A stretch of DNA of 64,000 nt from a virus (Duplodnaviria; Heunggongvirae; Uroviricota; Caudoviricetes): IMG/VR virus record IMGVR_UViG_3300028413_000003, positions 104,465 through 168,464 of that record. The stretch is one strand, 5' to 3'. Positions 30,414-31,354 of the stretch are shown here, piece after piece. The notes under the pieces are model-generated. The model had not been told where the DNA came from. It saw only the letters and a list, made by a program, of their open reading frames with translations, and ran no database searches. The translations under genes were made by a program, and so were the position numbers. The stretch's first letter is position 1. The number at the start of each line of letters is the position of its first letter.

Positions 30414-30943
30414 TGTACGGTGCTATTCTTAATCCAGGTTGTAGATTCTTTGACAAGCGTATTGGACAATCAACTACACTAACTGGTAGGCAGATTGTTA
30501 AGCATATGAGTGCAAAGGTCAACGAGATCATCACAGGCGATTATGATCATGTAGGTAAGTCTGTTATTTACGGTGACACTGATTCCTGTATAGCAGATTC
30601 GGTAATTGAGACTTCACTAGGGGATATGACCATCGAAAGCTTATTCAATAGACTGGAAATTAAAACTAAAAATGGAGACAAGGAATACGCACACGACGAC
30701 AATGTAATGGTAATGTCATACGATAGAGAACGCAACGAACCATATATGGGTCATATTAATTATGTGTATCGCCACAAAGTCTCCAAGGACTTATACGAAA
30801 TTGAGGATTCGGACGGCAATATAGTTACAGTAACCGAAGATCATTCAGTAATGGTCGAACGCAACGGTGAATTAATAGAAGTTAAGCCTCAGGAAATTGA
30901 CGAAGGCGATATTATAATAACACTTAATATTCATCATACCTGA
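30414..30943 (+). CDS. polB: PolB part B, exon 2, ending in a split-intein N-fragment
   Basis: LYGAILNPGCRFFD...QSTTLTGR...IYGDTD then intein sequence to TGA 30941-30943. Confidence 0.88.
30584..30940 (+). mobile_element. Split intein N-fragment (119 aa)
   Basis: Starts SCIADSVI right after YGDTD; block B VTVTEDHSVMV; acidic end EIDEGDII. Confidence 0.88.
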
Positions 30944-31130
30944 AAAATATAATTTAGATTTTATCATTAAACAATCAGGAGTAACAGCAAAAGAAGTATG
31001 GTCCAGAGATAAAATTAAATTAGAAGAAGCAAAAAAACGTGGATTCGATGTAATGGTAGTGTGGGATAGCCACTACACAGCAAATACTAAACTAGTAGAA
31101 CAACAAATATTAAAATGGTGGAACGAATGA
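30939..31130 (+). pseudogene. Start-less remnant of a Vsr-like (PD-(D/E)xK) homing endonuclease between the intein halves
   Basis: PEKY...TAKEVWSRDKIKLEEAKKRGFDVMVVWDSHY...LKWWNE*; no start after the upstream in-frame TAA; stop overlaps ATG 31127. Confidence 0.7.
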
Positions 31131-31354
31131 AAGATAAATTAATCAAGATATTATCAGCAAACACTAAAGAGGAAGTTGCTGTTGCAGTAAAGGACTTCCT
31201 GGATGGGGTTGGATCTAAGAAACTAAGTCTATCTCGAGGCAAAGTTAAAAGAGTTACTAGAGTTCAAAAAGCTAACGACGAATACGTATACGACATAGGA
31301 ATGAAAAATAGTAGTCAGCCTTGGTTCTTTGCTAACAACATCCTAATCCATAAC
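31127..31354 (+). mobile_element. Split intein C-fragment (76 aa)
   Basis: Basic GKVKRVTRVQK, block F EYVYDIGM, block G FFANNILIHN followed by Ser+1. Confidence 0.88.

Follow-up and report, generated by a model that had tools for sequence, protein, structure and literature searches.

The locus analyzed here raises the question of whether two intein-like fragments that interrupt a phage DNA polymerase gene, with a start-less open reading frame between them, are the halves of a naturally split intein, and how the split could have become fixed. The answer that we find very probable is that they form a naturally split class-1 intein of the Ser1/Ser+1 type, located at the DTD/S site of motif C (here and below, the slash marks the insertion point) in the sole gene for a DNA polymerase that was found on the contig of a jumbo phage, with the history and the mechanism proposed below. 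The intein is allelic with the PolB split inteins of Aes123, Aes508, CP21, and PA5oct.

A DNA polymerase gene in pieces

The window, that is, the whole stretch of 64,000 nucleotides that was analyzed, corresponds to bases 104465-168464 of a 251,140-bp IMG/VR viral contig that is estimated to be 71% complete. Its positions 27122-32209 are occupied by the separate pieces of a gene for a family B DNA polymerase, with approximately 48% protein identity to polB of phage PA5oct; this gene and all features described within it lie on the plus strand. Part A (27122-28792, 556 aa), encoding the exonuclease domain (Pfam DNA_pol_B_exo1, 2.4e-16) and the beginning of the polymerase domain (DNA_pol_B, 5.6e-12), forms a polypeptide of its own. 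Between parts A and B lies a free-standing HNH/NUMOD3 homing endonuclease gene of 397 aa (28782-29975), which matches phrog_655 (“homing endonuclease”, 8.8e-35) and phrog_12434 (“HNH endonuclease”). This gene is missing from L006, the closest relative of the window (87% amino acid identity), an IMG/VR contig from another sample and another assembly, where the split ends are identical and only about 60 nt separate the two polB parts.

The first exon of part B (29972-30161) ends with KKINLNS, which belongs to the first half of motif B, and one further base, the first of a Leu codon. It is followed by a group I intron of 252 nt without an ORF (30162-30413; Rfam RF00028, 92.9 bits, E = 1.5e-23, at 30152-30366), which splits motif B (KKINLNS/LYG). 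The intron boundaries were set by alignment to L007, an IMG/VR contig with 77% amino acid identity, which has a single uninterrupted polB of 1080 aa with an unbroken intein, no intron, and no endonuclease genes, and which reads KKINLNSLYGAIL in the motif B region. The last base of exon 1 is T, the last base of the intron is G, and splicing restores NS-L-YG. The intron, absent from L007, is 97-99% identical to the L006 copy, and it was the sole match when the locus was compared by megablast with phage records. Parts of it resemble introns of Staphylococcus, Bacillus, and Vibrio phages (81-96% identity).

The second exon of part B (30414-30583) is the N-extein, which ends with YGDTD of motif C; the ORF 30413-30943 holds this motif and then the N-intein. 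The C-extein (31355-32209, 284 aa), the polymerase's C-terminal portion, starts with SVYFS, whose Ser is Ser+1, and matches phrog_1918 (3e-43) and phrog_262 (1.7e-41), both annotated as “DNA polymerase”. Neither a second polB nor any polA was found on the 251-kb contig at its estimated completeness of 71%. In other phages, the polB genes of Atu_ph07 and Aes508 likewise consist of two or more genes with a break at a similar place, and polB is unbroken in L007, in Phosso, and in Vibrio phage 2.275.O.

Anatomy of the intein halves

The N-intein, IntN (30584-30943), has 119 residues, coding to 30940, and a stop codon at 30941-30943. The GAT codon for D of YGDTD (30581-30583) is followed by TCC (30584-30586), encoding Ser1, and then by TGT, encoding Cys2. 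Further conserved positions are R63-H64, corresponding to the NX [RK]-H motif, and TEDH at residues 84-87, corresponding to block B (N3 T-x-x-H). The C-intein, IntC (31127-31354), has 76 residues, of which residues 1-29 form a helical extension and residues 30-76 cover the Hint strands, including blocks F and G (EYVYDIGM ... FFANNILIHN/S); it ends with CAT AAC (His-Asn, 31349-31354), followed by TCG for Ser+1. With a cut-off of 35.8 bits, the Pfam family Intein_splicing scores 38.6 bits on IntN and 57.2 bits when both halves are read through, and it matches IntC alone with E = 4.6e-4. Both halves are in the same frame, with seven stops between them. The earlier note had placed fragments of exactly these lengths in separate ORFs at exactly these coordinates and had called them acidic and basic; indeed, the net charge and pI are -15 and 4.55 for IntN and +6 and 9.79 for IntC. 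There is one cysteine in IntN, at position 2, and none in IntC.

An alternative IntC start at ATG 31115, giving 80 aa, was rejected because L006 carries a stop codon in that extension, and 31127 is thus the conserved start. No strong Shine-Dalgarno sequence precedes ATG 31127 (GGTGGA in the window, GGTAGA in L006).

Residues 1-116 of IntN and 1-76 of IntC tile end to end on the unbroken intein of L007, IntC corresponding to L007 residues 117-191, so that the break falls at I116/M117. The last three IntN residues (HHT), which have no counterpart in the relatives, and the stop codon are read from the junction and from the DNA of an endonuclease relic described below, the TGA lying out of frame within the Pro-Glu codons of that relic. 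The contiguous L007 allele matches PDB entry 9hth, the Aes123 PolB1 intein with fused split halves, with E = 1e-11. A Foldseek search with an AF2 model of the L007 intein yielded 28 hits with E<=1e-3, including 9hth, all of them inteins or intein-like Hint domains. The model, of moderate confidence (pLDDT 66.6), served only to assign the fold class and to locate the extension's two helices, at 118-125 and 130-144.

First residue and splicing

The intein-less homologues read DTDS-x-YF at this site: DTDSSYFS in Sinorhizobium phage Phosso, DTDSVYFS in Vibrio phage 2.275.O, and DTDSAYFT in Atu_ph07. Excision from Ser 30584 to Asn 31354 gives YGDTD-SVYFS, which is identical to the intein-less Vibrio phage 2.275.O, and no other boundaries recover the spacing of the homologues. 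In the numbering that starts with this Ser, S6 and I8 match block A, which has S/T at position 6 and a hydrophobic residue at position 8, and the NX [RK]H motif has been described as a signature of Ser1 inteins (PMC10189870). Position 2 is Cys in the window, L006, L007, and L008, and Val in the same-site relatives PA5oct (SVDGST), PTm1 (SVVGDS), Aes508 (SVVGDT), and L090 (SVAGDS). Since Ser is followed by Val in the latter four, Ser is the nucleophile there. The Ser1/Ser+1 assignment made from the sequence at the outset is thus borne out by the homologues, by the relatives with Val at position 2, and by R63-H64.

Both intein halves are under purifying selection, with dN/dS values between the window and L006 of 0.20 for IntN and 0.23 for IntC. 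All splicing residues that were checked, namely Ser1, NX RH, TEDH, HN, and Ser+1, are kept. The predicted docking of the two halves scored 0.91, against 0.01 for the best control, with at least 98% contact agreement between runs and partner pLDDT of at least 74; of 78 solved complexes, 51 attain this mark, and of 108 mismatched pairs, two do. As split-intein complexes have already been solved, this result may reflect likeness to them rather than provide independent proof of binding. The predicted interface uses IntC residues 30-75 and leaves residues 1-29 outside. The long C-fragment, mentioned in the earlier note, is therefore real at 76 aa, but its length is due to the extension of about 29 aa outside the predicted interface, which L007 and PA5oct have as well. 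Because it also occurs in the unbroken L007 intein and in PA5oct, this extension is neither a product of the split nor an endonuclease leftover, but belongs to this clade of inteins.

Actual trans-splicing, which we infer from sequence, would begin with the separate synthesis of part B (a 120-aa extein and IntN, with the group I intron removed) and part C (IntC and the 284-aa extein). The acidic IntN and the basic IntC would pair and fold into a single Hint domain, Ser1 would form an oxyester that is transferred to Ser+1, Asn76 would cyclise, and an O-N shift would restore YGDTD-SVYFS. The ligated chain would then act together with the separately encoded part A.

Two other readings of the intein have to be weighed here. 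Cysteine is the commonest intein nucleophile, and the Cys codon at 30587-30589, retained in the window, L006, L007, and L008, could encode the true first residue of a Cys1/Ser+1 intein, in which case the N-extein would end with DTDS and the product would gain one Ser. However, DTDS-SVYFS would exceed all intein-less homologues by one residue, the same residue is Val in PA5oct, PTm1, Aes508, and L090, and the block A register and the NX RH pair both agree with Ser1. The Cys1 numbering was rejected on the grounds of homologue spacing, the Val in relatives, and the block A/NX register, and we regard it as highly improbable. The other reading dispenses with splicing altogether: the halves would merely hold the polymerase fragments together non-covalently, or the gene would be dead. 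Phages with non-spliced split polymerases and split RNRs are known, and parts A and B of this same polB are joined without any intein, but the complete set of splicing residues and a dN/dS of about 0.2 across both halves make this explanation improbable. Moreover, the break is situated within the metal-binding DTD motif, where approximately 195 unspliced residues would occupy the active site, no other polymerase was found on the contig (estimated to be 71% complete), and same-site alleles (Aes123 PolB1, with CP21 PolB1 also examined) have been studied for in vitro trans-splicing (PMC12707363, PMC11923092). A splicing Ser1/Ser+1 intein remains the reading that we prefer.

The endonuclease relic and its decay

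Positions 30939-31130, between the intein halves, hold what remains of a homing endonuclease gene of the Vsr-like (EDxHD) kind, a relic that lacks a start and comprises the last 62-64 codons or so and the stop codon. The relic is in a different frame from the intein halves; this frame is open over 30921-31130 (69 codons), and within that range no ATG, GTG, or TTG gives 30 aa or more. Its TGA (31128-31130) overlaps the IntC ATG at 31127 as ATGA. The profile search of 30939-31130 that had been proposed as a check placed the relic at positions 284-344 of 353 in phrog_22677 (PHROGs, E = 5.5e-8); Pfam gave nothing on the 69-aa piece alone, and the placement came from PHROGs and from a search against all proteins. 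In a library of 1.84 billion representative proteins, the 69-aa piece matched 219 protein clusters with E<=1e-3 (best 6e-11), and the match falls at the C-terminal end of full-length proteins, mostly of 300-380 aa among the matches listed. These full-length relatives show weak similarity to the DUF559 and MTES_1575 restriction-endonuclease-like families, and they are the Vsr-like, or EDxHD, homing endonucleases treated by Dassa et al. in 2009 (PMC2677866) and by Taylor et al. in 2011 (PMC3239194). The middle piece is thus, as the earlier note had recognized, the C-terminal end of a Vsr-like endonuclease without a start and with a stop overlapping the start of IntC.

In pairwise comparisons the relic matches PTm1 gp240 (E = 1e-9) and the VSR-like protein of Aes508 (5e-9). 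BLASTP of the relic found no similarity to the Hef-like endonuclease of PA5oct, and therefore the closest cultured relative of the intein carries a different endonuclease subfamily. In the alignment with the family (A1), the relic starts at a Pro directly after the family motif IIEFNGDYWHxN and keeps W..RD and VW(E/D)S. The catalytic E, D, and H (E..GD.WH) and the N-terminal DNA-binding part are absent, and only the last Asp (WSRD) is kept. To judge by these features, the relic is a pseudogene fragment and not an enzyme.

At least ten loci or phages with an intact endonuclease gene between the intein halves were found, which are the relatives that the earlier note had suggested looking for. 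An intact Vsr-like gene lies between the halves at the DTD/S site in L017, L090, PTm1, and Aes508, and at a site two residues upstream (YGD/S..HN/TDS) in L009, L011, L012, and L014-L016; in PA5oct and L008, a Hef-like endonuclease is found between the halves instead. The nearest full-length relative of the relic, P0001, is located directly 3' of an ORF comprising polB and an N-intein, in a fractured polB and at the same site. The window and L006 agree in their 5' deletion junction. The loss of the 5' part of the endonuclease gene, as originally proposed, is supported by these observations: the intact gene in the allelic loci L017, L090, PTm1, and Aes508, the position of P0001, and the junction shared with L006. 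Among the related Ser1 inteins, one finds two motif C sites two residues apart, YGD/S...HN/TDS with Thr+1 and YGDTD/S...HN/S with Ser+1, both with Vsr-like genes.

In L006 the relic is further decayed, by a deletion of about 66 nt, a 1-nt insertion, and a TAG, and 110 nt remain between two intact intein ORFs. Since L006 shares the junction and is further decayed, the deletion preceded the separation of the window and L006 lineages, and the relic is still decaying. The gap of another split intein, that of L013, is only 30 nt long; in L013, moreover, the exonuclease domain contains another intein, which is large and of the LAGLIDADG type. In the unbroken L007, a Met codon occurs exactly at the position of the IntC start in the window (..LSLCI-M-KKEF.., 3577-3585), which fits either a pre-existing Met that permitted the split or a re-fusion after the endonuclease had been lost.

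In the order of events that we infer, a free-standing Vsr-like (EDxHD) homing endonuclease gene would first have occupied the gap between the intein halves. A deletion would then have taken away the original stop of IntN and, from the endonuclease, its start, its catalytic E, D, and H, and the part that binds DNA, leaving approximately 64 C-terminal codons. The relic would now be without a coding role, while still providing an out-of-frame stop for IntN and the ATGA overlap at which the IntC ORF starts.

Since the contig is a metagenome assembly, the present structure could in principle be an assembly or sequencing artefact, the intein being really continuous or the whole endonuclease gene being present. 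Against this, seven in-frame stops rather than one separate the halves, the relic lies in another frame and is homologous to real endonucleases, and the independent contig L006 matches the window in its 5' junction and in the separation of the ORFs. As L006 comes from another sample and another assembly, an artefact is very unlikely, to the point of being negligible. One may also ask whether the relic has been retained for a function, as a promoter or translation-start region for the C-half or as a small protein. It does provide the IntN stop and the overlap with the IntC ATG, it contains a sigma-70-like site at 30924-30953 (10 of 12 positions), and its last 58 nt or so are 93% identical between the window and L006. 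However, the number of promoter-like sites is at the chance level (five, against a mean of 4.4 in shuffled sequence), and a scan of 30400-31500 for promoters and terminators gave nothing above chance; the identity of 93% is not above that of the flanking intein (88-93%). Further, one third of the relic is gone in L006 and the frame is broken there, so that no conserved protein is encoded, and L013 gets by with its 30-nt gap. We consider a retained function rather unlikely, and decay of a truncated endonuclease gene is the history that we favor.

Other intein loci in the same genome

This phage genome contains at least five intein-bearing loci. Outside the window, at G000:C1:46935-50120 (L088), a Cys1 split intein fractures a gene for a T4-type RNA ligase after KMDG, as identified by Pfam RNA_lig_T4_1 and by Intein_splicing on both ORFs; an intact Vsr-like endonuclease gene of 338 aa lies between the halves on the opposite strand. 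At G000:C1:220891-224496 (L086), also outside the window, a Rad50/gp46-like gene is broken directly after Walker A (NGTGK/CLC..) around an intact Vsr-like gene of 368 aa. The apparent intein has an N-fragment of only about 37 aa and a C-fragment of about 124 aa that includes block B and ends with SHN/T; it was read by eye, Pfam giving only the Rad50 zinc hook, and it would be an atypically split intein. Further Intein_splicing matches, several of them with internal stops, were found at G000:C1:3137-5733 and 231953-232288.

Exchange of the cassette between lineages

Nucleotide identity between the window and L006 is 88-99% over 28700-31350 (L006 3410-4870), compared with 60-78% in the backbone. 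Included in this island of high identity are the intron, at 97-99%, the relic, the two intein halves, and the edges of the first split; the exon that separates intron and intein is less similar (77-82%). Synonymous divergence is 0.24-0.30 per site in the intein halves, two to three times lower than in the exteins on either side, where it amounts to 0.77-0.79 and is saturated. Together with the deletion junction found in both genomes, this pattern suggests an exchange of the mobile parts between the lineages, later than the divergence of the genomes and after the truncation of the endonuclease. More tentatively, and with some doubt on our part, the split intein and the dead endonuclease stub may have passed as a unit between well-diverged phage lineages after the deletion. 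Possible routes of transfer are recombination during co-infection, co-conversion by the neighboring HNH gene, and the action in trans of intact Vsr-like paralogues from other places in the genome.

Comparison with known systems and implications

The arrangement described here is already known from other phages, and the differences are the partial relic, Cys2, the helical IntC extension of about 29 aa, and the signs of cassette exchange. The PolB1 inteins of the Aeromonas T4-like phages Aes123 and Aes508 share with it the host protein, the DTD/S site, Ser1/Ser+1, an IntN of about 119 aa, NX [RK]H, and T.DH. The GenBank record of Aes508 is annotated with this layout, too: gp43A is followed by a homing endonuclease, by gp43B-1, which contains a group I intron and the N-intein, by a 353-aa VSR-like protein, and by gp43B-2, which contains the C-intein. 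However, IntN is only about 32% identical to that of Aes123/Aes508 PolB1, the VSR-like gene that is complete in Aes508 is reduced here to its last 64 codons or so, and IntC has 76 aa, against 40 aa in Aes123 and Aes508, the extra part being the helical extension. The nearest cultured relative is the Pseudomonas jumbo phage PA5oct (gp173/gp172/gp171), with 48% identity in polB and 55% in IntN, the same site, the same break point, and an IntC with the same N-terminal extension. It differs in having an intact “Hef-like” endonuclease of 560 aa without detectable similarity to the relic and Val at position 2.

As for the endonuclease, the relic aligns to the C-terminal end of the Vsr-fold family of I-Bth0305I, or EDxHD family, and keeps the WSRD Asp and the VW(E/D)S strand; unlike members of that family (PMC3239194), it has no N-terminal DNA-binding region, no catalytic E, D, and H, and no start codon. 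The locus resembles the “fractured genes” of Dassa et al. 2009 in that split halves in adjacent ORFs surround the place of a free-standing Vsr-like endonuclease whose stop overlaps the downstream ATG (PMC2677866). The intact free-standing endonuclease of those genes is absent here, and only a start-less 3' fragment of 64-69 codons is present, which corresponds to the stage of endonuclease loss (PMC2677866). This loss is step III of the published model and was seen once, at the locus gp41-7 (PMC2677866). Unlike gp41-7, the present locus retains a recognizable 3' relic, so that the family of the lost gene can be named, and a later stage of decay is seen in its closer relative L006. Among the fractured hosts in the sections of PMC2677866 used here, family B polymerase does not appear.

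The Aes123 PolB1 intein has been characterized, engineered for trans-splicing (CL, CLm), and crystallized (9hth), and CP21 PolB1, LCGC14 PolB2, and GOM-OPS-1 PolB2 have been examined as candidates for cysteine-less tools (PMC11923092, PMC12707363). Hence the suggestion that the present intein could be a new orthogonal ligation tool stands as far as its Ser1/Ser+1 chemistry is concerned, but inteins of this kind are already known and in use (Aes123 PolB1 CL/CLm, CP21 PolB1, LCGC14 PolB2), and, owing to Cys2, it is not cysteine-less, unlike the Aes123 CL/CLm class. What it adds is one Ser1/Ser+1 PolB split intein, about 32% identical to Aes123, as a candidate for orthogonality screens, several such inteins having been characterized before.

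For one intein allele, the loci compared here form a decay series: a mini-intein without a break, an intein whose halves flank a complete endonuclease gene, a relic of 64 codons, a broken relic, and a gap of 30 nt. This series supports the published model (PMC2677866), in which a split intein becomes fixed upon the death of the selfish nuclease. If the passage of the split intein and the endonuclease stub between lineages did occur, it would mean that a split intein is still mobile without an endonuclease of its own.
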